In this document: in pieces, positions 5,355-49,603 of the stretch
Numbering within the stretch: position 1 is the first letter of the stretch
Layout of the letters: every line of letters begins with the position of its first letter
IMG/VR virus record: IMGVR_UViG_3300012931_000017
Span: 33,415 to 97,414 of that record
From: a virus
Direction: 5' to 3' (one strand)
Length of the DNA stretch: 64,000 nt
Translations under genes and position numbers: made by a program
The notes under the pieces: generated by a model
The model's database searches: none
What the model saw: only the letters and a program-made list of their open reading frames with translations
What the model was told of the DNA's origin: nothing

Positions 5355-6866
5355 CTAAGTTGCATTTTCCTGTAGTTCTATATCTGTAATTTGTAGATTA
5401 TGATAATCAAAACCCTGTTTATCATAATATTTTAGTCTTTCTTCAAAATGATCAAACAAATAATTATTTTTTAATCTTCCAGTTCTTAATTTAACTCGTA
5501 AATCATCAACTACATCCCATAAAATCATTTGATCTTTAGACTCATGAGTGCGTAATCCTCGACCAATTGACTGAAGAACCTTTATTTTTGATTTGTATGA
5601 TGAAAAGAACACTACGTTATGTATTTTTTTTATGTTAATTCCGACAGCCATAGTTTGATAAGTTCCAACTAATATCATATTATCTTCTATTTCCATTAGT
5701 TTTCTTAATTCTTCTCTTTTAGTTGCACTTATTTCACCATAAATAACACAAACTTTATACTTATCATCTAAATTATCAATTAAATATTGTTCAATTAGCT
5801 TTAAGTGTTCTATATGTTTGCAAAGAATGAGGGTATTTTCTTTATCATTTATATTACTGAATATGAAGTTTAATATTTTATATCTACCTTTATGACTCTC
5901 TACTAAACGTTCTTCTTCAGGATAAGATCTATTTTTGTATTCATTAATAATTCCTATCGGATATTTATAGAGCAAATTAGCAATGGTTATTTTTGCTAAT
6001 ACACCTTTATCTATTAGTTCCCCTGAAGTAAGTTCAAATATTTTAGGGCCTAAATAACCATAGATGGTAAACATATCAATATCATCATCAGGTAATGTTC
6101 CGGTAAAACCAAATTTATAATAAGCATTTGAACATTTAATCATAATGCTTTTTAAAGATTTTGAATCTAAACTTAACCCATGACACTCATCCATTAAAAC
6201 TGCATTAAATTGAGAAAAAAAATCTTCACCTTTAGTATAAATTGACTGCCAAGTTGAGACTAATATTTTTTTACCAGTTATTTTTTTGCCAGAATATAAA
6301 ATATCAACAAAATCAACAACTTCTTTCCATCCATATTCAGAAAAATCGGAGAACATTTGTTCAACTAGTGATATATTTGGTACAACTAATAAAATATTTC
6401 CTTCAACTTGTTCAATTAGAAACCTAATAATAGAATAAATTATTAGTGATTTTCCGGAACCTGTAGGAGATTCCACAACTCCACGTTTATTATAAAGGGA
6501 ATTTTTTATAGCTTCTATTTGATAATCTCTTGGTTTCAAATCACCAATAAAAATAGAATCGAAGAATATTTGTAAATTATCATCGGTTATTTCTTCATCA
6601 AAGAATTGGGAAATATCAAAGTCAAATTTAAATGGGTAGTTTTTTTCAGTTAAATAATTTACTAATTTTCCAAGTAAACCAATAGGCAGAAGGTGGGTTT
6701 TTATATCAAAAAAAGAGATTCTTCCATCCCAAATTCTAGCTTTAAATCTTGGATGAAATTTATAATTCTTAGCATAGCAACTAAAAATATCTCTAATTTC
6801 ATAAGCATATTCTTTTTCACAATCAACACAAACATAAACTTCATTAATTTTTTCAATATTTATCAC
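5355..6866 (-). CDS. uvsW: UvsW-like SF2 DNA helicase (GTG start)
   Basis: N-terminal 'FHPRFKARIWDGRISFFD' mirrors T4 UvsW 'FNPRFRYGNWDGRIRLLD'. Walker A 'SPTGSGKS', DEAD-box variant 'VLMDECH', 'TGT', and 'QSIGRGLR' motif VI. RBS AGGAGAG upstream of GTG at 6866. Confidence 0.85.
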   Translation of the reverse strand: MINIEKINEVYVCVDCEKEYAYEIRDIFSCYAKNYKFHPRFKARIWDGRISFFDIKTHLLPIGLLGKLVNYLTEKNYPFKFDFDISQFFDEEITDDNLQIFFDSIFIGDLKPRDYQIEAIKNSLYNKRGVVESPTGSGKSLIIYSIIRFLIEQVEGNILLVVPNISLVEQMFSDFSEYGWKEVVDFVDILYSGKKITGKKILVSTWQSIYTKGEDFFSQFNAVLMDECHGLSLDSKSLKSIMIKCSNAYYKFGFTGTLPDDDIDMFTIYGYLGPKIFELTSGELIDKGVLAKITIANLLYKYPIGIINEYKNRSYPEEERLVESHKGRYKILNFIFSNINDKENTLILCKHIEHLKLIEQYLIDNLDDKYKVCVIYGEISATKREELRKLMEIEDNMILVGTYQTMAVGINIKKIHNVVFFSSYKSKIKVLQSIGRGLRTHESKDQMILWDVVDDLRVKLRTGRLKNNYLFDHFEERLKYYDKQGFDYHNLQITDIELQENAT

Positions 6867-6943
6867 AAATAAACTCTCCTGAGTTAGTTTAAACTAAAAA
6901 CCTCAAGATTATTTATCTTATGATAACTTTTTATTCAACTAAT

Positions 6944-7074
6944 TCTTCAACTAATTTAAACCTCTGCAAATCAATGAAACTATCTTAGGCATAGACAAGT
7001 ATACCTTTTCTATTTTTCGCGGATTTGAACTGGTTATTATTAGTTTAAATAGGTTTTAAATATAGATTTGAAAT
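6944..7074. repeat. left arm of a ~130-bp inverted repeat (partner at 8357..8488, about 90% identical)
   Basis: The reverse complement of 6944-7074 aligns base for base to 8357-8488 with a few substitutions. It contains a tRNA T-arm-like 'GGTTCAAATCCGCG' on the complementary strand. Confidence 0.8.
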
Positions 7075-7089
7075 TATATTTGTGGATAA

Positions 7090-7479
7090 TCAAATTGGTG
7101 TCATAGAATCAAGAACTTTTTTAGTATTAAAAACCATAACTATGCCTTTGGAAGATTTCATTGAAATTCTATCACCAGAATCAATAATACCAACTATAGT
7201 CCAGACTTCATTAAATTTTTTGCTTTTAAACTGTTTACCGATAACTATATCAGGATTAGTTTTCGATTTTTTTAAAGTTTGTGCTGGTTCAGCTTGAGGA
7301 GTATCTTCTTTACTTTTCTGGTTTATTGCAGCTAATATCTTTTGTTTTACTTCATCAGTTGGATTATGAGCTTTAAGATAACTTTGTAAATCATCTTTAG
7401 AAGTTTTATTAATCCAAGCATCAGTTGAATCATCTTCGTTTAATTTATAGTTTTGATTATAATCTAAAAAACTTAACAT
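7090..7479 (-). CDS. hypothetical protein (129 aa), in the uvsY.-1 position
   Basis: ORF track; lies immediately downstream of uvsY on the same strand, as uvsY.-1 does in T4. Confidence 0.4.
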   Translation of the reverse strand: MLSFLDYNQNYKLNEDDSTDAWINKTSKDDLQSYLKAHNPTDEVKQKILAAINQKSKEDTPQAEPAQTLKKSKTNPDIVIGKQFKSKKFNEVWTIVGIIDSGDRISMKSSKGIVMVFNTKKVLDSMTPI

Positions 7480-7488
7480 TTGTTTCTC

Positions 7489-7929
7489 CTAAATTCCACC
7501 AATATAAAATTTATCAACCTCTAATTTATTTTTTAAAGACCAATGAAAATCTTTTATATTTATAAGTTGTTGAGCTAAAAACTCAACTTGTCTTCTTTGA
7601 TTCTCTACAACCCTATATTTATTGAGATAATCTTTATTTCCTTCGATATAAGTTGTAATTTCACCTTTAGAATCTAAACTATATTCAAATTCTAAACCAT
7701 CTCCTCTCTTTGGGAATTTATATTTGTGATAAAGTGTTGAGAAAGTTTCTTTTAACATAATTTCAAAATTTATTAGTTTATTCTTTTCAGTATCTAAAAG
7801 ATTTGAGGTTTCTTGTATTAAACCAGGAATCTTATTTAATTTAGTTTGTATATTGAGTTTAGAGGAATCATCTATAACCAATTCCTTCTCGTAATATTCT
7901 TTTAGTTGATCAAAATCTTCATCCTTCAT
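7489..7929 (-). CDS. uvsY: UvsY recombination mediator
   Basis: 'KFPKRGDGLEFEYSLD' matches the T4 UvsY 'YSGRGDGDEFSMD' core. Size 146 aa; adjacent to uvsW as in T4. Confidence 0.7.
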   Translation of the reverse strand: MKDEDFDQLKEYYEKELVIDDSSKLNIQTKLNKIPGLIQETSNLLDTEKNKLINFEIMLKETFSTLYHKYKFPKRGDGLEFEYSLDSKGEITTYIEGNKDYLNKYRVVENQRRQVEFLAQQLINIKDFHWSLKNKLEVDKFYIGGI

Positions 7930-7949
7930 TTATTCACCTTCTTAGAGTT

Positions 7950-7985
7950 TACTTTTAAAATAACATTTTAAAATATAATTGTCAA
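7950..7985 (-). promoter_or_regulatory. copy of the conserved early-promoter element, minus-strand orientation, driving uvsY
   Basis: The reverse complement reads TTGACAATTATATTTTAAAATGTTATTTTAAAAG, about 25 nt upstream of the uvsY start. Confidence 0.6.
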
Positions 7986-8356
7986 ATCATCTTCTAATTT
8001 TTAATCTTCATTGGCACTCTACTATATGTATTCAGATCTTAGATCTTTTCATATAATCCTAAAGGATTATATGTTGCTTAAAGTCTTACACCAAATATTA
8101 GTTAAATTAGTCTTAAAACATCTTATTAGTCTTTATAGTCTTAATAGTTAAATTTATAATCAAAAGACGTAGTCTTTTGTCTTATAGCTTTAGCTATAAG
8201 ATAATTTAATAACCTTTAATTTCTTTATTATAGTATATCATTCAAGAAATCGATAAAAATGCCCGAATTTGGTAAATAATACTTATTCTTTGGGTAATAA
8301 CTAAAATACACTAATTTGGTGATAATTTTATAAGAATATGAGTAGATTTTATTTTA

Positions 8357-8488
8357 CATTTCAAATCTATCTTTAAAACCTATTTAAACTAATAATAACC
8401 AGTTTAAATCAGTGAAAAATAGAAAAGGTATACTCGTCTATGCCTAAAATCGTTTCATTGATTTGTAGAGGTTTAAATTAGTTGAAGA
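8357..8488. repeat. right arm of the ~130-bp inverted repeat
   Basis: See 6944..7074. Confidence 0.8.
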
Positions 8489-8499
8489 TAAAACATCTA

Positions 8500-8604
8500 C
8501 AAATAGGTTTAAATCTTAGGTTCTTGTTCCTAGCGGAACAAGAAGGACTAAAGTCCGCGTTCTAAGGACTAATCTTTGTAGATAATAACTAAATAGTTTT
8601 AAGT
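8500..8604. repeat. repeat unit A1 (57-bp block plus 36-bp block) containing the perfect palindrome TTCTTGTTCC-TAGC-GGAACAAGAA at 8521-8544
   Basis: Near-identical copy at 8919-9022. Confidence 0.85.
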
Positions 8605-8653
8605 TTAATTAGTGGTTTGTGTTTAATTAGTTTATTAGATGAAGATTTTTTAA

Positions 8654-8839
8654 TTTTTACCAAAGAGGATCAAAAATTGAACGGCGCTTTATTTTACGTT
8701 AGTAAAATAAATAATAAGATAATCTTAATACACTTAATAATATTAATAATACTAATAATTATAAGTTTTATTATGAAAAATATCTGCTAAATCTTTTCTA
8801 ATTAATATAATATTTTAAAATATAATTGTCAAGTGGCAT
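8654..8839. repeat. repeat unit B1 (~186 bp) ending in a minus-strand copy of the conserved promoter (TTGACA complement at 8826-8831)
   Basis: About 90% identical copy at 9268-9449. Confidence 0.85.
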
Positions 8840-8918
8840 AATTTACCTTATTTTTATCAAAAATTTGAATCAAATAAGATAACAAAATAGTTCCTAAAAC
8901 CTATCTGGTTATAATATC

Positions 8919-9022
8919 CAAATAGGTTTAAATCTTAGGTTCTTGTTCCTAGCGGAACAAGAAGGACTAAAGTCCAAGCTATATAACTAATCTTTGTAGA
9001 TAATAACCAAATAGTTTTAAGT
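8919..9022. repeat. repeat unit A2 with the same perfect 10-bp-arm palindrome at 8940-8963
   Basis: See 8500..8604. Confidence 0.85.
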
Positions 9023-9267
9023 CCTACCTGATGTAATTAGTTTTATTAACCAAAACTTAGAAAATTTTAAATCCACCATATTATTAGTTTAACTTCAACC
9101 AAAGAAGATTTTACAGGTTCTGGTTCTTAAAGTAACCTTAAGGACTAAAGTCTAATTAAGTTTAGATTTTTGGTTAAATTAATTTTGAATATTTTTGAAG
9201 ATAATAACCAAATAATTTTTTGTTCAGAAAAACGAATTTTTTAATTCTAATTTTTAACGATGTTTTC

Positions 9268-9449
9268 AATTTTTATCAAAAAGGATGGAAATTCAGGATG
9301 GCTCTTTATTTTACGTAGTAAAATAAACAATAAGATAATCTTAATATTACTTTAAAGATTATAATATTATTATTATTTTTTTATGAAAAATACCTTATAA
9401 ATCTTTTCTAATTAATATAATATTTTAAAATATAATTGTCAAGTGGCAT
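9268..9449. repeat. repeat unit B2 ending in a minus-strand promoter copy (TTGACA complement at 9436-9441)
   Basis: See 8654..8839. Confidence 0.85.
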
Positions 9450-9531
9450 TTTATTGAACTAAAAATGCTTAATTTTACTTTACTTTAGGTAATTCGTTTT
9501 GTAAAGTAAACTGATGTTAAAATATGGTGAT

Positions 9532-9566
9532 TTGACAATTATATTTTAAAATGATATCTTATAATA
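9532..9566 (+). promoter_or_regulatory. conserved early-promoter element upstream of gp46
   Basis: TTGACAATTATATTTTAAAATGATATCTTATAAT. It is divergent from the minus-strand copy at 9436-9441. Confidence 0.6.
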
Positions 9567-9592
9567 AACAAGAGAATAATAAAGGAGACCAA

Positions 9593-11353
9593 ATGTTTGT
9601 AGAATTTATAGAACTAAAATATAAGAATTTCATCTCATTTGGAAGTCAATTAACAACTATATCCTTTGAAAAAGGGCTAAATTTAATAACAGGAAAGAAT
9701 GGTGGAGGAAAATCTGGTGGTTTACTTGATCCACTATCATTTTGCTTATTTGGAAAACCATATAGAAACATAAAAATTAGAGATTTGATCAATAGAGTTA
9801 ATAAGAAGAAACTATACACTGAATGTACTTTTAAGGTTAATGAAGATACTTTTACCATAATTAGAACTCAATTACCAGATTCTATTCAAATAATCAAGAA
9901 TGGTAGTGAATATAATTTAGAATCAGCAAAGAAGATAATTCAGGTTGAAATTAATAGAATTTTAGGAATTGACTATAATATGTTTCGCCAGATTATAGCT
10001 TTGGCTATAAACTTTAATAAATCATTTCTTGAGATGGATTCTGGTGAAAAGCGTGAAATAATAGAAAGTATAACCAATGTTAAAGTTTTAGCTGAAATGC
10101 TAAAACTTGTAAAAATAGATGTAAATAGTTTAAAAACTCAAGTTGACATTAACTTTAATACTATCAAAATTCTGGAGGAAAATCTTTTTTCAACTGATAA
10201 ACGAGTTAAAGAATTAACTTATGCCAAAGATAATTTTGAAAAAAATAAAACGGAAGATCTAGAAAAAATAGATTTAAGATTAAAAGACTACTCAAATGAA
10301 AAAAACGTTTATTTAAAACAATTAGCTGAAATTGAATTAAAAAAAGAAGATATTAAGAGTTTAGAAACACAATCTAAAGAAATAAATAAACAACTTGATA
10401 TTTTAACTAAAAAACTAAATGTTGATAAGTATAAGATTGAAGAGTCAGAAAAAAGTATTGAATTTTTAAATAAAAATGATATTTGTCCTATTTGTAATTT
10501 AAATTTAACCAAAGATCATAAATTTGAAGAAAAAAATAAACTTAATACTATTATTAGTTCTTGTAAAGAACATATAAAAAATAATCAGCAGGAATATAAT
10601 GATCTTAAAACCTCTCTAAACTCATTTAAACAGAGAATAATAGCTCAAACGGATATTAATCATAGATTATCATCAATTAATGATAAGATAACTTTTATAA
10701 ACAATGAAATAAAGAATAATGAAGTTAGAAGAATTGAAATTGTCAATAGAATATTTGATTTTGATTTAGAATCATTAAAAAATGAATTTGAACAAAAAAC
10801 TGATAATTATATTGACCTATTTAAGAAAAATGAACAAAATAGTCATGACTTACATAATTTTGAGGTTACTACTTCAATTTTATCAGATAATGGAATTAAA
10901 GCCTATTTCTTTAGAAAAATCATGCCTATTTTAAATAATAAAATAAACGAATACCTTAAAAAATTTGATATGTTGATTAAAATCGAAATTAATGAATTTT
11001 TAGAAGATAAAATATATAGTTTGGATATATCAGGTAATGAAATATCTTATTTTAGTCACTCAGAAGGTGAGAAAAAACGTATTGATATTTCAATTCTATT
11101 AGCTTTTATAGATATAACCAAATTAGTCTGTAATTGGGATTGTTCTCTTCTAATTTTAGATGAAATTCTCGATTCAAAGGTTGATGAGGATGGTTTAGAA
11201 ATAATGATTTCTTCACTGAAGAATTTGATAACTAATAATAAAAGTTTATGTGCTTATATTATATCACACAGACTACATGAATCTGATGCTTTTGATAGAC
11301 AATTTAGAGTATCTAAAGCTAGTGGCTTTTCAAGAATAGAACAATTATACTAA
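9593..11353 (+). CDS. gp46: gp46-like recombination nuclease subunit (Rad50/SbcC family ATPase)
   Basis: 'KYKNFISFGSQ...ITGKNGGGKSG...FCLFGKPYR' matches the T4 gp46 N-terminus, with a long coiled-coil middle. I moved the start to the ATG at 9593 (RBS AAAGGAG), which matches the T4 gp46 start. The track ORF begins 14 codons earlier at 9551. Confidence 0.85.
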   Translation: MFVEFIELKYKNFISFGSQLTTISFEKGLNLITGKNGGGKSGGLLDPLSFCLFGKPYRNIKIRDLINRVNKKKLYTECTFKVNEDTFTIIRTQLPDSIQIIKNGSEYNLESAKKIIQVEINRILGIDYNMFRQIIALAINFNKSFLEMDSGEKREIIESITNVKVLAEMLKLVKIDVNSLKTQVDINFNTIKILEENLFSTDKRVKELTYAKDNFEKNKTEDLEKIDLRLKDYSNEKNVYLKQLAEIELKKEDIKSLETQSKEINKQLDILTKKLNVDKYKIEESEKSIEFLNKNDICPICNLNLTKDHKFEEKNKLNTIISSCKEHIKNNQQEYNDLKTSLNSFKQRIIAQTDINHRLSSINDKITFINNEIKNNEVRRIEIVNRIFDFDLESLKNEFEQKTDNYIDLFKKNEQNSHDLHNFEVTTSILSDNGIKAYFFRKIMPILNNKINEYLKKFDMLIKIEINEFLEDKIYSLDISGNEISYFSHSEGEKKRIDISILLAFIDITKLVCNWDCSLLILDEILDSKVDEDGLEIMISSLKNLITNNKSLCAYIISHRLHESDAFDRQFRVSKASGFSRIEQLY

Positions 11354-29318: not shown

Positions 29319-30503
29319 ATGATTGAGTGTCCATATTGTAAAAACCTTTACTCTAATATAAAAACCCATATATTTTATAAACATGGTAAAAGTTATGAAG
29401 ATTTTAAACGGGAATTTCCTAATTTTGGAAAGACTCAAGAAACTGTTTCTTATTGGGACGGCATTTATTATAAATGTGAATTTTGTAAAAATGTTGGAAA
29501 AACTAAACGCAAATCAATGTTATTAAATCATTATAAAAAATATCATTATAATGAATTAAACGAAAGTCAAAAAATAGAGGTTGATAAATATGTTGAATCT
29601 AAAAACAAATTGGATCTAAATGAATTAATAACCTGTCCAATTTGTGAAAGAAAAGTAAGAATGTTTAAACAACATATTGAGAGAGGTCATTGTTTAAATT
29701 GGAATAAATTTTGTGAAGATTATAATTTTGATAAAAATTTAAAATGTATTATTACTAAAAATCACAAAAATCAATTGTCCATTAATAAGAAACTATTTTA
29801 TCAATCTGAAATTGGATTAGATCAAAGAAAACATTTATCAAAAAAATTTTCAGGAAATGGTAATTTTGCAAAACTAAAATATGTTAGAGAAAAAATTTCA
29901 AAATCAATGTTGAGTAATAATAGAACAAATCAACAATTAGGTAGTTTTGGTTTAATAGTTAATTTCATTTATAATAACCAAGAATATTTTTGTAGAAGTT
30001 TTGTTGAATTTAGAATTTTATTTGCTTTACTTGAAAATAATATTCCGTTTGAATATGAAAAAAATAGATTTTTATATGAATTAGATAGTGGTTTAAAACG
30101 GATTTATATTAGTGATTTGAAAATAAACGACCATATATATGAAATCAAAGCATTTTCTGGAGTTAATATAGAGGAAGGAAAATTTAAGGGTTTTGATGTT
30201 TACAATAAAAATATAAGAATCATTATAGAGAAATCTGGTTTTTCTTTTAAAATAGTAAATTATTCTATGCTTATGGATGAACTAAATTTAGAAAAAAATC
30301 CTGATTTTTATTATGCAAATAAAATAAAAGAAATGTTAGAAAAAAATGAAATTAAAAAATTGCAATTTCTGGTTTTTTCACGAAGTAAATTGAAAAGCAA
30401 TTTTTTTAAAAAATACAACATAGATATAGAAAAATATGCTTGTGTTAATTATAAAGAATTTATAAAAGAAAATGGAGATAAAATAAATGATAACTTGGTG
30501 TGA
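29319..30503 (+). CDS. free-standing homing-endonuclease-like protein: three C2H2-like zinc fingers plus a C-terminal PD-(D/E)xK/Vsr-like nuclease domain
   Basis: 'CPYC...HIFYKH', 'CEFC...HYKKYH', 'CPIC...HIERGHC' fingers; C-terminal 'ISDLKINDHIYEIKAF'. Confidence 0.55.
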   Translation: MIECPYCKNLYSNIKTHIFYKHGKSYEDFKREFPNFGKTQETVSYWDGIYYKCEFCKNVGKTKRKSMLLNHYKKYHYNELNESQKIEVDKYVESKNKLDLNELITCPICERKVRMFKQHIERGHCLNWNKFCEDYNFDKNLKCIITKNHKNQLSINKKLFYQSEIGLDQRKHLSKKFSGNGNFAKLKYVREKISKSMLSNNRTNQQLGSFGLIVNFIYNNQEYFCRSFVEFRILFALLENNIPFEYEKNRFLYELDSGLKRIYISDLKINDHIYEIKAFSGVNIEEGKFKGFDVYNKNIRIIIEKSGFSFKIVNYSMLMDELNLEKNPDFYYANKIKEMLEKNEIKKLQFLVFSRSKLKSNFFKKYNIDIEKYACVNYKEFIKENGDKINDNLV

Positions 30504-31512
30504 AATCGAAAAGGTTGAAGAACTTGAAGATAATAACTATGTCTATGATATAGAACTTGAAAATAATCATTATTTTCCTTCTAATGGAATTGTTAGTCAT
30601 AATTGTAGACTAGTTTCGCAGCCAGAAATGTTAAAATTAGCTTCTCAAGTAAATTCGTTTGGTGGAGGTGGTTCTATTTCTTTAGGTAGTCATAGAGTAT
30701 GTACTATAAATTTTAATAGAATTGCATTAGAATGTAAGGATTATGATGATTATTTTAAAATTTTGGAAAATAGACTAGAAGATTCAACCAAAATTTTAGT
30801 TTCTCATAAAGAGCTTATAAAAAATCTAACTAAACAAGGTTTACAAATGTTTATTTCTAATGGTTGGATAAACATGAACAGAATGTTTTCTACTTTTGGT
30901 TTAATAGGTATTTATGAAGCTTGTCAATATATGAATGAAAAATTCGGTTCTTATGATGATTTAGAAAAAGATATATTAGTTTTTGTTAATAAAAAGGTTG
31001 AAGAATTATCCGTAAAATATAACATTAGTGGAAATATTGAGCAAATTCCTGCTGAAAGTTTTGCTATTAGATTGTGTAATGCTGATAAAATTCTTTTTGG
31101 TGAGGATAAAGTAAATTATAAAATTTATGCAAACCAGTTTATACCACTTTGGAATGACGCTACTATTTGGGAAAAAATGGAAGCCGATGGTAGACTTAAT
31201 AAACTTATTACAGGGGGCTCTCTTGTCCATTGTCAAATTGGAGAACGAGTTACATCAAAACAAGCAGAAAAAATAATTAGATACGCCGTTCAAAGTGGGT
31301 GTGAACATTTTGCTCTTAACTCTGTATGGTCTCAATGTGAGCACAATCACGCTTCTTTTGGGAAAGTACTAATTTGTCCTATATGTGGTGGAAAAATAGT
31401 AGATTATTTAACTAGAGTTGTAGGATTCTTTACTCCAGTTTCTTCTTGGACTAAAATTAGAAGAGAGTGGGAATTTGAAAATAGAAAATTTAATAATTTA
31501 GATCAAATATAA
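30487..31512 (+). CDS. nrdD: Int-C (39 aa) fused to the NrdD C-terminal extein (glycyl-radical domain)
   Basis: Int-C blocks F/G '...NGIVSHN' then 'CRLVSQPEM...'; C-terminal zinc site 'CEHNHASFGKVLICPICGG' and glycyl-radical-like 'TRVVGFFTP'. Confidence 0.8.
   Translation: MITWCEIEKVEELEDNNYVYDIELENNHYFPSNGIVSHNCRLVSQPEMLKLASQVNSFGGGGSISLGSHRVCTINFNRIALECKDYDDYFKILENRLEDSTKILVSHKELIKNLTKQGLQMFISNGWINMNRMFSTFGLIGIYEACQYMNEKFGSYDDLEKDILVFVNKKVEELSVKYNISGNIEQIPAESFAIRLCNADKILFGEDKVNYKIYANQFIPLWNDATIWEKMEADGRLNKLITGGSLVHCQIGERVTSKQAEKIIRYAVQSGCEHFALNSVWSQCEHNHASFGKVLICPICGGKIVDYLTRVVGFFTPVSSWTKIRREWEFENRKFNNLDQI
31399..31492 (+). repeat. 94-bp direct repeat, copy 1 (nrdD 3' end)
   Basis: Identical to 32469-32562. 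Confidence 0.9.
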
Positions 31513-31616: not shown

Positions 31617-32585
31617 ATGTGTATTCCTAATTCAATTTATGTAAGTGTAAAACCCGAAACATTAATTTTAGATCTTAGGATTAAAAGACATAAAGTAAAA
31701 ATGGTTTATTTTATTGTATATAAAACTACTAATTTAATAAATCATAAGATTTATGTTGGAATTCATTTACAATTAAATAATTTAGATTTTGATGGTTATT
31801 TGGGTTCTGGTAAACTTATAAAGCTTTCTATAAAGAAATATGGAAAAGAAAATTTTAAAAGAGAAATTATTGAAGTTTGTAAATCTTGGAATGAACTAGA
31901 AGAAAGAGAAGTTTATTGGATTGAATATTTTCACACTTATATTAAAAAATATCCTAATGACAAAGGGATGAATTGTAGCATTGGAGGTACAAGTGGGTTA
32001 AGTGGATGCAAAAATAAACATTGGAGTAAAGGTAGAACTAAGAATGATTGTGAATCTTTAATGAGAATGGCAGAATCAAGAAAAGGTTTAAATAATCCAG
32101 TACATAAAATACCAAAAGAAAAAATGAAATTAATAAATGAAAAAAGATCAAAAATTATGATTGGGATATTAAAAGGTAGAAAAGTTCCTTGGATTGATAA
32201 ATCTGCTAAAACATTAAAATTACGATACAAAAATGAACCAGAATTAAAAGAATATTGTAAAACTTTTAAATATATTATTAAAATTATATTTAAAAATGAA
32301 TCTAAAGTAGAATATGGTTTCTGTTTAGAAGATATTTCTAAGAAATATAATGTAAGTTTGGGTGCCATTTATTCTATAACCCGTAAAAGAAGAAAAAATA
32401 TTTGGGTTGATGATTTAACCTTTGAAATTATACATACTTTTGTTCCAGTTGTTAAATTAGAAAAAGTTGTAGATTATTTAACTAGAGTTGTAGGATTCTT
32501 TACTCCAGTTTCTTCTTGGACTAAAATTAGAAGAGAGTGGGAATTTGAAAATAGAAAATTTACAAAAATACCTGAAGTTCAATAA
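31617..32585 (+). CDS. GIY-YIG homing endonuclease whose 3' end is a duplicated copy of the nrdD 3' end
   Basis: 'VYFIVYKTTNLINHKIYVGIH...YLGSG' GIY-YIG motif. The last 31 codons '...VDYLTRVVGFFTPVSSWTKIRREWEFENRKF' are identical to the NrdD C-terminus. Confidence 0.8.
   Translation: MCIPNSIYVSVKPETLILDLRIKRHKVKMVYFIVYKTTNLINHKIYVGIHLQLNNLDFDGYLGSGKLIKLSIKKYGKENFKREIIEVCKSWNELEEREVYWIEYFHTYIKKYPNDKGMNCSIGGTSGLSGCKNKHWSKGRTKNDCESLMRMAESRKGLNNPVHKIPKEKMKLINEKRSKIMIGILKGRKVPWIDKSAKTLKLRYKNEPELKEYCKTFKYIIKIIFKNESKVEYGFCLEDISKKYNVSLGAIYSITRKRRKNIWVDDLTFEIIHTFVPVVKLEKVVDYLTRVVGFFTPVSSWTKIRREWEFENRKFTKIPEVQ
32469..32562 (+). repeat. 94-bp direct repeat, copy 2
   Basis: See 31399..31492. Confidence 0.9.
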
Positions 32586-49443: not shown

Positions 49444-49527
49444 GGGTGATTCGCATAGTGGTCAAGTGCTCCTGACTGTAGATCAGGCGGCGAAAGCCTT
49501 TCGGTGGTTCAAATCCATCATCACCCA
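49444..49527 (+). tRNA. tRNA-Tyr (GTA), class II with long variable arm
   Basis: Hand-folded. Acceptor GGGTGAT/ATCACCC, D-stem GCAT/GTGC, anticodon stem CCTGA/TCAGG with loop CTGTAGA, 15-nt variable arm, T-arm GGTGG-TTCAAAT-CCATC. Confidence 0.8.
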
Positions 49528-49539
49528 TTTTTATTTTAA

Positions 49540-49603
49540 TGACTTGTATTTCAATTGGTAGAACCCAGAGATGTAGTTGTAGGTTCAAATCCTTCCAAGT
49601 CAG
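49540..49603 (+). pseudogene. degenerate tRNA-like element (64 nt): acceptor, D-arm and T-arm present, anticodon arm truncated
   Basis: Acceptor TGACTTG/CAAGTCA, D-arm TTTC-AATTGGTA-GAAC, T-arm GTAGG-TTCAAAT-CCTTC, but only about 13 nt where the anticodon arm plus variable region (about 22 nt) should be. Confidence 0.45.

Follow-up and report, generated by a model that had tools for sequence, protein, structure and literature searches.

Among the genes of an uncultured T4-like phage, the recombination gene uvsY is bracketed by a genuine 131-base inverted repeat, which raises the question of how such arms arose and what they might do at this locus. It is the sole long inverted repeat across the window, by which we mean the whole 64-kb stretch of DNA that was analysed. 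The two arms (unit U, Table 1) have 131 nt each and align without gaps, being complementary at 123 of 131 positions (8 mismatches, 93.9% identity), and a BLAST of the arms within the window gave E = 5e-53, far above chance level. The first-pass annotation had already described them as inverted copies; this was confirmed, with the right arm starting at 8358 instead of 8357 and the identity higher than the claimed value of about 90%. Its account of the enclosed 1.28-kb segment was also borne out, since this contains uvsY, the 129-aa ORF and the uvsY promoter, together with a palindrome-rich spacer of about 370 nt.

Table 1. Features of the uvsY locus and of the inverted repeat around it (positions in the window).
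Feature	Positions	Strand	Remarks
uvsW helicase	5355-6866	-	Downstream of left arm, same strand
uvsW translation-initiation hairpin	6874-6917	-	CTTGAG (6907-6902) pairs with CTCAGG (6883-6878), covering the Shine-Dalgarno sequence (SD); read from sequence
Left arm	6944-7074	Unit U reads on minus (transcribed) strand	15 nt past stop of 129-aa ORF, 78 nt ahead of uvsW start
129-aa ORF, uvsY.-1 position	7090-7479	-	Without family match; positional homologue in relatives 36% identical
uvsY (recombination mediator)	7489-7929	-	PHROG 231, E 5e-14 over full length; Pfam UvsY sub-threshold
P3, early-type uvsY promoter inside bracket	7957-7985	-	Exact 21-nt family core
ORF-free spacer inside bracket	7990-8357		Perfect palindromes at 8050-8073, 8162-8178 and 8181-8200
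Right arm	8358-8488	Unit U reads on plus strand	310-440 nt downstream of promoter at 8832
D element copy 1 (~110-nt multi-hairpin repeat)	8495-8604		Abuts outer end of right arm
P2, early promoter (leftward)	8804-8832	-	Transcript passes through right arm
P1, early promoter (leftward)	9414-9442	-	Head of ~610-bp unit paralogous to P2 unit, 79% identity

The repeat is not an assembly artefact, because the arms differ at eight sites and two Logan contigs from an independent sample (run SRR6436070) matched the window at 100%, over 7031-8401 and 7057-3438. The left arm was found at 100% in the Logan contigs L089 and L005 and the inner 44 nt of the right arm in L005, and both SRR6436070 contigs terminate within a 33-nt run that is identical in the two arms. 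Between samples there were 0 differences over 5 kb. Because short-read graphs break at both arms, k=31 assemblies, that of the Logan sample included, cannot give the orientation of the uvsY segment. This would be compatible with a switch at the DNA level, in which UvsX/UvsY recombination at the arms flips the 1.28-kb segment, giving two isomers with different uvsY and uvsW transcription. The arms (131 bp at 94%) offer ample homology for recombination of the T4 type (PMC3016280), and promoter P3 would move with the segment. However, the assembled orientation is the ancestral synteny in all relatives, and the arm-specific variants are identical in the two samples; therefore, repeated crossovers have not scrambled the arms. 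In addition, neither a site-specific recombinase nor a recombinase Pfam family is on record among the neighbours in a range of about 6 kb, which comprise gp46/gp47-like genes, UvsW, structural proteins and unknowns, and the inverted isomer would set uvsY head-on to P1 and P2. Such a switch is considered very unlikely.

With respect to the origin of the arms, it had been proposed that each of them contained a T-loop motif of the phage tRNAs, GGTTCAAATCC(GCG), and that they were tRNA-derived ends of a MITE-like element or an integration relic. Neither statement held. The left arm carries AGTTCAAATCCGCG (minus strand, 10/11), which differs in a single base from a T-loop sequence present in two phage tRNAs, but the motif is missing from the right arm, which reads AGTTTAAATCAGTG, and the resemblance is owed to three of the eight substitutions by which the arms differ. 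In the left arm (ACCAG-TTCAAAT-CCGCG) pairing is possible at only two of five positions, so that no T-stem is formed; the right arm at the motif is ACCAG-TTTAAAT-CAGTG. ARAGORN revealed no tRNA in either arm, and the Rfam tRNA model RF00005 gave no match in 6850-9600 (2.75 kb) at E ≤ 5 or in each arm at E ≤ 10; Rfam at the gathering threshold was also negative for tRNA origin. As a positive control, the focused Rfam search recovered a weak 64-nt tRNA at 49540-49603. Among other RNA families, only sub-threshold matches resembling miRNA precursors were obtained, and they were attributed to the long AU-rich hairpin of the arms. A MITE was rejected on account of two copies only, none in the scanned collections, and no transposase. 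No target-site duplication was found at the arms, the dyad symmetry is internal to the unit, at positions 30-126 only, and the ends of the unit lack terminal inverted repeats. The probability left to a tRNA-derived MITE or integration relic is negligible; this reading is refuted at the sensitivity of the tools used and may be dropped.

Comparison with relatives was informative in this regard. In three lineages the gene order gp46 / uvsY - small ORF - uvsW is retained, and the closest relative (L091) is distant, with UvsW at 67% amino acid and about 70% nucleotide identity; its spacers have 500 and 73 nt vs. 1663 and 223 nt in the window. A word search with UvsY for closer relatives retrieved only itself, and the best UvsW in the corresponding search had 67% amino acid identity. 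The JGI cluster representative P0002 was 100% identical. No arm-like sequence was found in the four related loci, where the compact spacers leave no space for either arm, nor any long inverted repeat at at least 80 uvsW loci. Absence of the arms from all relatives with an otherwise identical locus had been named beforehand, along with a lack of processing sites, as a sign of chance local duplication, and this absence was observed in every relative available, the locus being otherwise syntenic and the relatives distant (UvsW ≤67% amino acid identity). Since the relatives keep the gene order and compact spacers without arms, the inverted duplication is lineage-specific, and since the arms are missing from every relative, a function has no conservation behind it. 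Extra arm copies were not found by blastn-short or a two-arm nhmmer profile, nor in a further 6.9 kb of the contig outside the window, the count of two thus covering 71 kb of the 97.8-kb contig. Four arm-derived probes of 21-27 nt, one to three per collection, gave no exact match in IMG/VR, JGI metagenomes or GTDB (185,579 species genomes), which also speaks against a relic of tRNA or MITE type, and blastn of the arms against GenBank phages gave no match. In sum, a non-coding module able to form a hairpin was duplicated in inverted orientation in this lineage, and the arms are neither a tRNA relic nor a mobile element.

Upstream of uvsY there is a 1.66-kb ORF-free, repeat-expanded region that contains three identical early promoters, all directed leftward. 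P1, P2 and P3 share, without a mismatch, a 21-nt promoter core that was found 16 times vs. 0.24 expected, always co-oriented with genes, which confirms the leftward promoters at 8832 and 9442 (previously placed at 8831 and 9441). The spacer 7990-8357 contains TAGTCTTAA repeated 4.4 times at 8108-8148, further copies of the D element are present at 8914-9022 and 9115-9223, and the adjacent duplications are of various ages (92-97% identity for the D elements, 79% for the ~610-bp units). A 10-nt repeat, TTCAACTAAT, was detected at the outer junction of the left arm, and at this junction only of that arm. The short motifs AGGTTTAAA, AATAGGTTTWAAA and TAGTCTTA showed weak or no enrichment, and therefore the case for binding sites fails. 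In a simple consensus scan of the minus strand over 6700-9700, which AU-rich terminators may escape, nothing resembling a terminator was found. Several hairpins lie within the spacer. At the other end of the locus, a late-promoter-like sequence (GATAAATA, 6917-6910) is located just 5' of the stem of the uvsW hairpin, and relatives have an equivalent hairpin that hides the SD of uvsW, with a late promoter (TATAAATA) in the loop. The presence of this hairpin both in the relatives and in the window implies that, in this clade, early transcription ordinarily continues from the uvsY operon into uvsW.

Alternatively, the ORF-free region could serve as an origin of replication resembling T4 oriF (ori(uvsY)), flanked by the two arms, whose hairpins form on opposite strands, as structural or priming elements. 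It coincides with a switch in transcription direction and a cumulative GC-skew minimum (~8-9 kb), as for T4 oriE/F/G (PMC3016281), and it combines three promoters, AT-rich DNA (23-25% GC), the iteron-like 4.4-fold repeat, palindromes and a highly structured leader (z -7.7). Nevertheless, a promoter and an unwinding element suffice for T4 oriF, which does not need hairpins on its flanks (PMC3016281), and at this locus the arms are separated by 1.28 kb and two genes. Moreover, the region is compact and armless in relatives, and motif TAGTCTTA is not enriched. It must be noted that the promoters, the low GC content and the skew minimum are also expected from divergent transcription alone. A role of the arms at an origin is thus regarded as highly improbable.

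The likeliest consequence of the repeat appears to be pairing of the arms at the RNA level. The computed energy of the arm-arm RNA duplex is -172 kcal/mol vs. about -24 and -23 for the local folds, with 123 Watson-Crick pairs (125 of 131 when two G-U wobbles are counted), and in the minimum free energy structure of a 1932-nt transcript 124 of the 131 right-arm bases are paired with the left arm. Strong leftward early promoters precede both arms, and the scan revealed no terminator in the interval from one arm to the other. The duplex proposed in the first-pass annotation is sound in geometry and energetics, and its processing by RNase III is putative.

In addition, each arm folds singly into a hairpin of about 97 nt (-23.3 kcal/mol, z -2.6, for the left arm; -29.6 kcal/mol, z -4.6, for the right arm on the + strand). 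Each also contains a 13-codon ORF, in which three of the eight arm differences fall, all of them at synonymous third positions (simulation p = 0.008), a pattern that hints at a possible constraint on unit U as a tiny gene instead. The arms may accordingly act singly and their inversion be incidental, either as an RNA hairpin serving 3' stability, processing or weak termination, or as a gene for the 13-aa peptide MPKIVSLICRGLN; the sharing of one long hairpin by both arms and the sense orientation of the left-arm copy with respect to the uvsY operon agree with this. However, the right-arm unit reads on the plus strand, at which no promoter of the family is aimed (generic AT-rich matches only). 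As for a tiny gene, its SD is weak (AAGG, 12 nt upstream) and its start codon AUG is enclosed in the apical stem, the three synonymous sites are also unpaired in the hairpin, and no similar peptide was found in 90 related loci. A terminator was rejected as well: read in the opposite orientation, the hairpin followed by U4 has a weak fold, with -12.7 kcal/mol over the entire 3' part, and the consensus scan was negative. Function of the single arms is therefore held to be distinctly unlikely.

It is also possible, though on balance unlikely, that the repeat is a neutral by-product, i.e., a duplication tolerated in rearrangement-prone non-coding DNA of a recombinogenic T4-like phage, in which RNA pairing is incidental. 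The repeat is private to one lineage, being absent from the four related loci and from all scanned collections, and it is surrounded by tandem and dispersed duplications. Two left-arm substitutions disrupt the hairpin of that arm. No G-U bias was found among the five transition differences in the minus-strand duplex (two G-U vs. three A-C), and no covariation between the arms was seen, for which eight differences are too few. Against neutrality, phage genomes are compact, and at 6% divergence the arms have remained sharply delimited and free of indels, whereas the repeats nearby contain gaps (12 openings in 272 nt). The substitutions in the 13-codon ORF are likewise non-random (p~0.008). Furthermore, a cost of inversion is expected under active recombination, yet the repeat has outlived the coalescence of the sampled genomes, in which no difference was seen over 5 kb.

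In attention to the above, the reading we favour, tentatively and at somewhat less than even chances, is a lineage-specific inverted duplication of unit U followed by pairing of the arms in early RNA and cleavage of the resulting double-stranded RNA near uvsW; co-transcription of the arms, their cleavage and any benefit are inferred. A 131-bp non-coding module, itself an imperfect hairpin, would have been duplicated in inverted orientation, with one copy in the repeat-expanded early-promoter region upstream of uvsY and the other inserted in the short spacer that separates the gene at the uvsY.-1 position from uvsW. Template switching or illegitimate recombination may have been its origin, which would fit the 10-nt microhomology TTCAACTAAT at the outer junction. 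Leftward early transcription from P1 (9442) or P2 (8832) would proceed through the right arm, P3, uvsY, the 129-aa ORF and the left arm into uvsW. As the right-arm unit reads on the plus strand, leftward transcripts would contain its complement, and as both arms lie on one path, early RNAs would bear two complementary 131-nt segments. Pairing in cis would loop out the 1.28-kb uvsY message, and pairing in trans would join the P2 leader RNA to the uvsY-operon mRNA. The most likely effect would be a long double-stranded RNA adjoining the start of uvsW, which a double-strand-specific RNase would cut. The uvsY message would be trimmed or made more stable by this cleavage, which would also split uvsW from early read-through.

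A more elaborate version, which we consider improbable, is a 131-bp RNA clamp, in which the complement of unit U in non-coding early RNA from P2 or P1 would pair with the unit upstream of uvsW. Cleavage would then free a duplex-capped uvsY message and block early expression of UvsW, the helicase that unwinds R-loops, shielding R-loops of the adjacent origin. Against the favoured reading, folding of the local hairpins would come first as the RNA is made, and either arm could become trapped in its own hairpin. In T4, uvsY and uvsW are the two genes that balance recombination-dependent replication against replication from origins (R-loops). If arm pairing is used, the locus would hold an unusually long and recently evolved RNA-RNA device controlling uvsY and uvsW, and phage regulation built by a simple inverted duplication. 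If the clamp is true, it would be an RNA-based early/late insulator, of which we know no described counterpart in T4-like phages. Even if neutral, the repeat would still provide a dated case of a sequence duplicated in inverted orientation in the genome of a T4-like phage.

Long-range stalks processed by RNase III are formed by the flanks of 16S and 23S in bacterial rRNA operons, RNase III sites are also present in T7 early mRNA, and about 20 bp are needed. As in such stalks, two complementary segments of one predicted transcript would bracket a functional RNA of about 1.3-1.5 kb, and the predicted arm duplex, stable and with 123 Watson-Crick pairs, is much longer than these 20 bp. To our knowledge, 131 bp is far longer than any known RNase III stalk. 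In contrast to these, the arms are not conserved in relatives, they bracket an mRNA with its own internal promoter, and cleavage of their predicted duplex is putative.

Palindromic intergenic repeats and MITEs such as ERIC, Correia and RUP are imperfect palindromes of about 100-130 bp in transcribed intergenic DNA, and those of Correia are RNase III targets. Unit U shares with them the long hairpin made from an imperfect palindrome in intergenic DNA, but not the multi-copy dispersal; its hairpin is confined to positions 30-126, and terminal repeats, target-site duplication and transposase are all missing. Hairpins of the T4 gene e or soc type block translation on early transcripts. The sequestration of the uvsW SD by a hairpin in relatives, and in an altered form in the window, is of this kind, and uvsW of T4 is expressed late only (PMC3016281). 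The left arm lies immediately upstream but does not belong to the SD hairpin, being an added element that relatives do not have.

The PeSL cassettes of T4-type phages (PMC2839356, PMC4122927) are likewise repeated regulatory sequences in plastic regions, and the window has, as those phages do, a highly conserved early-promoter family, with duplicated promoter-containing units adjoining the arms. Unlike PeSLs, the arms have a stem-loop and no member of the promoter family, are inverted rather than tandem, exist in two copies and flank a conserved core gene, uvsY, rather than variable ORFs. In the Campylobacter group II phages CP21 and CP220, bipartite arms of direct or inverted repeats surround unique DNA or genes and have been tied to module inversion (PMC4546147). 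Each arm there is an array in which as many as 18 units of 72-86 bp are repeated, and four regions per genome share these units, whereas here each arm is a single 131-bp unit with no sequence similarity to them; what both cases have in common is a low-GC T4-like genome in which non-coding arms, in CP21 and CP220 sometimes inverted, enclose genes (PMC4546147).

The repeat search returned a single inverted pair, 6944-7074 and 8358-8488, with arms of 131 nt that are 94% complementary and separated by 1283 nt. The pairwise alignment of the arms was ungapped, with 123/131 identical positions and homology ending sharply on either side, and the arm-to-arm match had an E value of 5e-53 in this 64-kb window with 26.4% GC. 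The inverted repeat placed by the first-pass annotation at 6944-7074 and 8357-8488 with about 90% identity was confirmed, except that its right arm starts one base later, at 8358, and the identity is 93.9%. A 97.8-kb MEGAHIT contig (ENA ERZ27227667 k141_4222033) contains the window in reverse orientation, as bases 2-64001. No third copy of the arm was found in the window by blastn-short, the whole-window repeat search or an nhmmer profile of the two arms, nor was any further copy found in the 6.9 kb of the ENA contig lying outside it. A direct repeat of 101 nt and 98% identity (31392-31492 and 32462-32562) was also observed at the 3' ends of the adjacent ORFs 30487-31512 and 31617-32585, whose common C-terminus (...CPICGGKIVDYLTRVVGFFTPVSSW...) may resemble the glycyl-radical C-terminus of anaerobic ribonucleotide reductase.

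An assembly artefact would yield identical arms, and these differ at eight sites. In addition, a different run (SRR6436070) supplied two Logan contigs that are 100% identical to window positions 7031-8401 and 7057-3438. Each of them ends within a 33-nt stretch identical between the arms, which is the behavior of a k=31 graph at a true inverted repeat; therefore, both arms and their private variants are present in the second data set. The repeat is a real, independently confirmed inverted duplication, private to this lineage. The protein record P0002, a UvsW identical to that of the window over the aligned length, comes from a JGI contig of 97,414 bp (the ENA contig has 97,815 bp) and may represent a third independent assembly of the same phage.

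The features enclosed by the arms and flanking them are listed in the table below. The core of the promoter family, TTGACAATTATAYTTTAAAAT, is present in 16 copies against 0.24 expected, always in the orientation of the genes; exact copies are found leftward at 7985, 8832 and 9442 and rightward at 9532.

Features enclosed by the inverted repeat and flanking it
Feature	Coordinates	Strand	Location and remarks
uvsW	5355-6866	minus	left of left arm
129-aa ORF	7090-7479	minus	inside bracket; no Pfam or PHROG match
uvsY	7489-7929	minus	inside bracket; PHROG 231 'UvsY-like recombination mediator', E 5e-14, full length
Promoter	7985-7957	minus	inside bracket
ORF-free stretch, 370 nt			inside bracket; three perfect palindromes and TAGTCTTAA x4.4 array
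ORF-free DNA, ~1.06 kb			right of right arm; reaches gp46/SbcC-like gene, divergently transcribed

The phage is poorly sampled, and GenBank phages matched it only over short stretches (~150-280 nt, 67-73% nucleotide identity), nearly all in uvsW. The best relatives were three IMG/VR contigs (L001, L002 and L003; ~70% nucleotide identity, UvsY 49-50% amino acid identity) and the Logan contig L091 (UvsW 67%, gp46 64%, UvsY 50% and the small ORF 36% amino acid identity). The gene order gp47 - gp46 / uvsY - small ORF - uvsW, with the switch of direction between gp46 and uvsY, is common to all of them and the window. The gp46-uvsY spacer is 1663 nt in the window against 500 nt in L091 and ~500 nt in L003, and the spacer between the small ORF and uvsW is 223 nt against 73 nt in L091 and ~55-65 nt in L001. 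No arm-like sequence was detected in 86 loci by sensitive blastn, and no long inverted repeat in more than 80 uvsW loci or in L091. Given these compact spacers and the absence of arms, the arms, the extra promoters and the D elements (hairpin repeats beside the right arm) are expansions private to the lineage of the window. Going by these sequences, the duplication took place after the known relatives had split off; it predates the sampled population, since the two samples had 0 differences over ~5 kb while the arms are 6% apart. As a mechanism, flipping of the enclosed DNA through homologous recombination is plausible for a T4-like phage, but the assembled orientation agrees with the ancestral synteny, and neither of the two samples shows scrambled arm variants.

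With respect to the origin of the arms, the first bases of the left one (TTCAACTAAT) are tandemly repeated in the flank at its outer junction. Taken with the better hairpin of its partner, this points to the left arm as the derived copy, which would have been inserted via microhomology. An exact 12-nt tandem duplication (TTCAACTAATTC x1.9, 6934-6956) lies across this junction and may be the microhomology footprint of the insertion event.

The proposal that both arms carry a tRNA T-loop motif and are tRNA-derived or MITE-like ends did not hold. The sequence GGTTCAAATCC occurs exactly at 49506 and 49582, within tRNAs, and the minus strand of the left arm reads AGTTCAAATCC(GCG), with one mismatch to it, while the right arm reads AGTTTAAATCAGTG. 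The three bases giving the left arm its T-loop look are three of the eight arm-specific differences, and the flanks of the motif (ACCAG / CCGCG) are incapable of forming a T-stem. ARAGORN identified five tRNAs elsewhere in the window and none at the arms, and the Rfam tRNA model had no match in 6850-9600 at E<=5 or in each arm alone at E<=10. This negative is meaningful, as the focused Rfam mode recovered a short tRNA missed by the whole-window run. This 64-nt tRNA-like gene (49540-49603, between tRNA-Tyr and tRNA-Met) scored 35.7 bits, above the gathering score; it was also missed by ARAGORN, and its anticodon arm appears poorly paired. A tRNA relic was therefore rejected. So was a MITE: terminal repeats at the unit ends and a target-site duplication are both absent, blastn of the arms against 50,697 GenBank phages gave no match, and exact arm probes of 21-27 nt had none either, with three run against IMG/VR, one against JGI metagenome contigs and two against GTDB with one genome per species.

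Each arm alone folds into the same imperfect hairpin of ~97 nt (unit positions 30-126). The plus strand of the right arm reached -29.6 kcal/mol (z -4.6), and the remaining three strand and arm combinations -23 to -24 kcal/mol (z -2.4 to -2.7). Five of the eight arm differences are unpaired in this hairpin, one changes U-G to C-G and two break left-arm pairs, a placement that is uninformative. Each arm also holds a 13-codon ORF, MPKIVSLICRGLN (8440-8481, plus strand; 6951-6992, minus strand), within which three of the eight differences fall, all at synonymous third positions; in simulation, the chance of an all-synonymous pattern in any ORF of at least 10 codons of the unit was p = 0.008. It is possible that each hairpin, or the tiny ORF, acts independently. 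Against a real gene count a weak and distant Shine-Dalgarno (SD) sequence, an AUG buried in the apical stem, the location of the right-arm copy on a strand without a family promoter and the lack of a similar peptide in related loci. The synonymous pattern is a mildly significant, unexplained signal.

The left arm lies within an intercistronic spacer of an operon under an early-type promoter. In T4, hairpins that hide the SD sequence are the classical arrangement silencing translation of early read-through transcripts, as in genes e and soc. In L001 (1074-1140) and L091 (4427-4505), a hairpin hides the uvsW SD, with the late promoter TATAAATA in its loop; in the window (6874-6917), a CUUGAG/CUCAGG stem covers the uvsW SD, the loop is gone and GATAAATA is located just 5' of the stem. 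The device seems conserved in the clade, and read-through from the uvsY operon into uvsW would therefore be normal. Counted from an exact copy of the operon's promoter, the right arm is 310-440 nt downstream, and a scan of the minus strand over 6700-9700 gave no terminator-like site. Therefore, leftward early RNAs should hold both arms; alternatively, the arms may be carried on separate co-expressed RNAs. The arm-arm duplex was computed at -172 kcal/mol against ~-24 per local fold, and in the minimum free energy structure of a 1932-nt transcript, 124/131 right-arm bases paired with the left arm. As to the RNA duplex envisaged in the first-pass annotation, its energetics and geometry, with both arms downstream of promoters, are sound, and as a physical model it appears well founded. 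A near-perfect RNA duplex of 131 bp is a substrate for RNase III-type enzymes. Cutting of the duplex, should it occur, would shorten the uvsY message on either side and separate it from uvsW, possibly to the benefit of the phage. In T4, the late expression of uvsW is explained by the ability of its product to unwind R-loops at origins (PMC3016281). Nearly as likely is a neutral duplication in a rearrangement-prone region: the transitions among the arm differences comprise two G-U against three A-C, a pattern that gives no argument for selection on the duplex.

The DNA between uvsY and the divergently oriented gp46-like gene is free of ORFs over 1.66 kb (7930-9592), against ~500 nt in relatives. 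This region is itself a product of duplication: it contains the three exact leftward copies of the promoter core, ~610-bp paralogous promoter-bearing units (79% identity, 12 gap openings) and three copies of the multi-hairpin D element of ~110 nt (8495-8604, 8914-9022 and 9115-9223). The RNA leader starting at the 8832 promoter shows an unusual degree of structure (z = -7.7). The perfect palindromes, within 8034-8200, are CATATAATCCTAAAGGATTATATG (8050-8073), AAAAGACGTAGTCTTTT (8162-8178) and CTTATAGCTTTAGCTATAAG (8181-8200); the iteron-like array (8108-8148) is a short way upstream of the uvsY promoter, and its 8-mer is not enriched across the window. Cumulative GC skew reaches its minimum in this region, and transcription changes direction there. 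The region is a candidate for a cluster of non-coding RNAs or for a replication origin, comparable to T4 ori(uvsY). An origin-related role is suggested by location only, T4 oriF, that is ori(uvsY), sitting at a comparable divergence point (PMC3016281). This promoter- and structure-rich region may merit more attention than the inverted repeat itself.

Among the known families with which the repeat of the window was compared, tRNA-derived elements, MITEs and PeSL cassettes have defining features that it lacks, and no recombinase family of the kind expected beside a site-specific invertible segment was recorded for the genes within about 6 kb. In working principle, the repeat is most like the long-range RNase III stalks found in rRNA operons, with which it has a stable predicted duplex in common. 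Where genomic setting is concerned, it comes nearest to two systems: PeSL cassettes, known from T4-type phages (PMC2839356, PMC4122927), and the bipartite repeat regions that Campylobacter group II T4-like phages carry, in which inverted arms sometimes enclose genes (PMC4546147).
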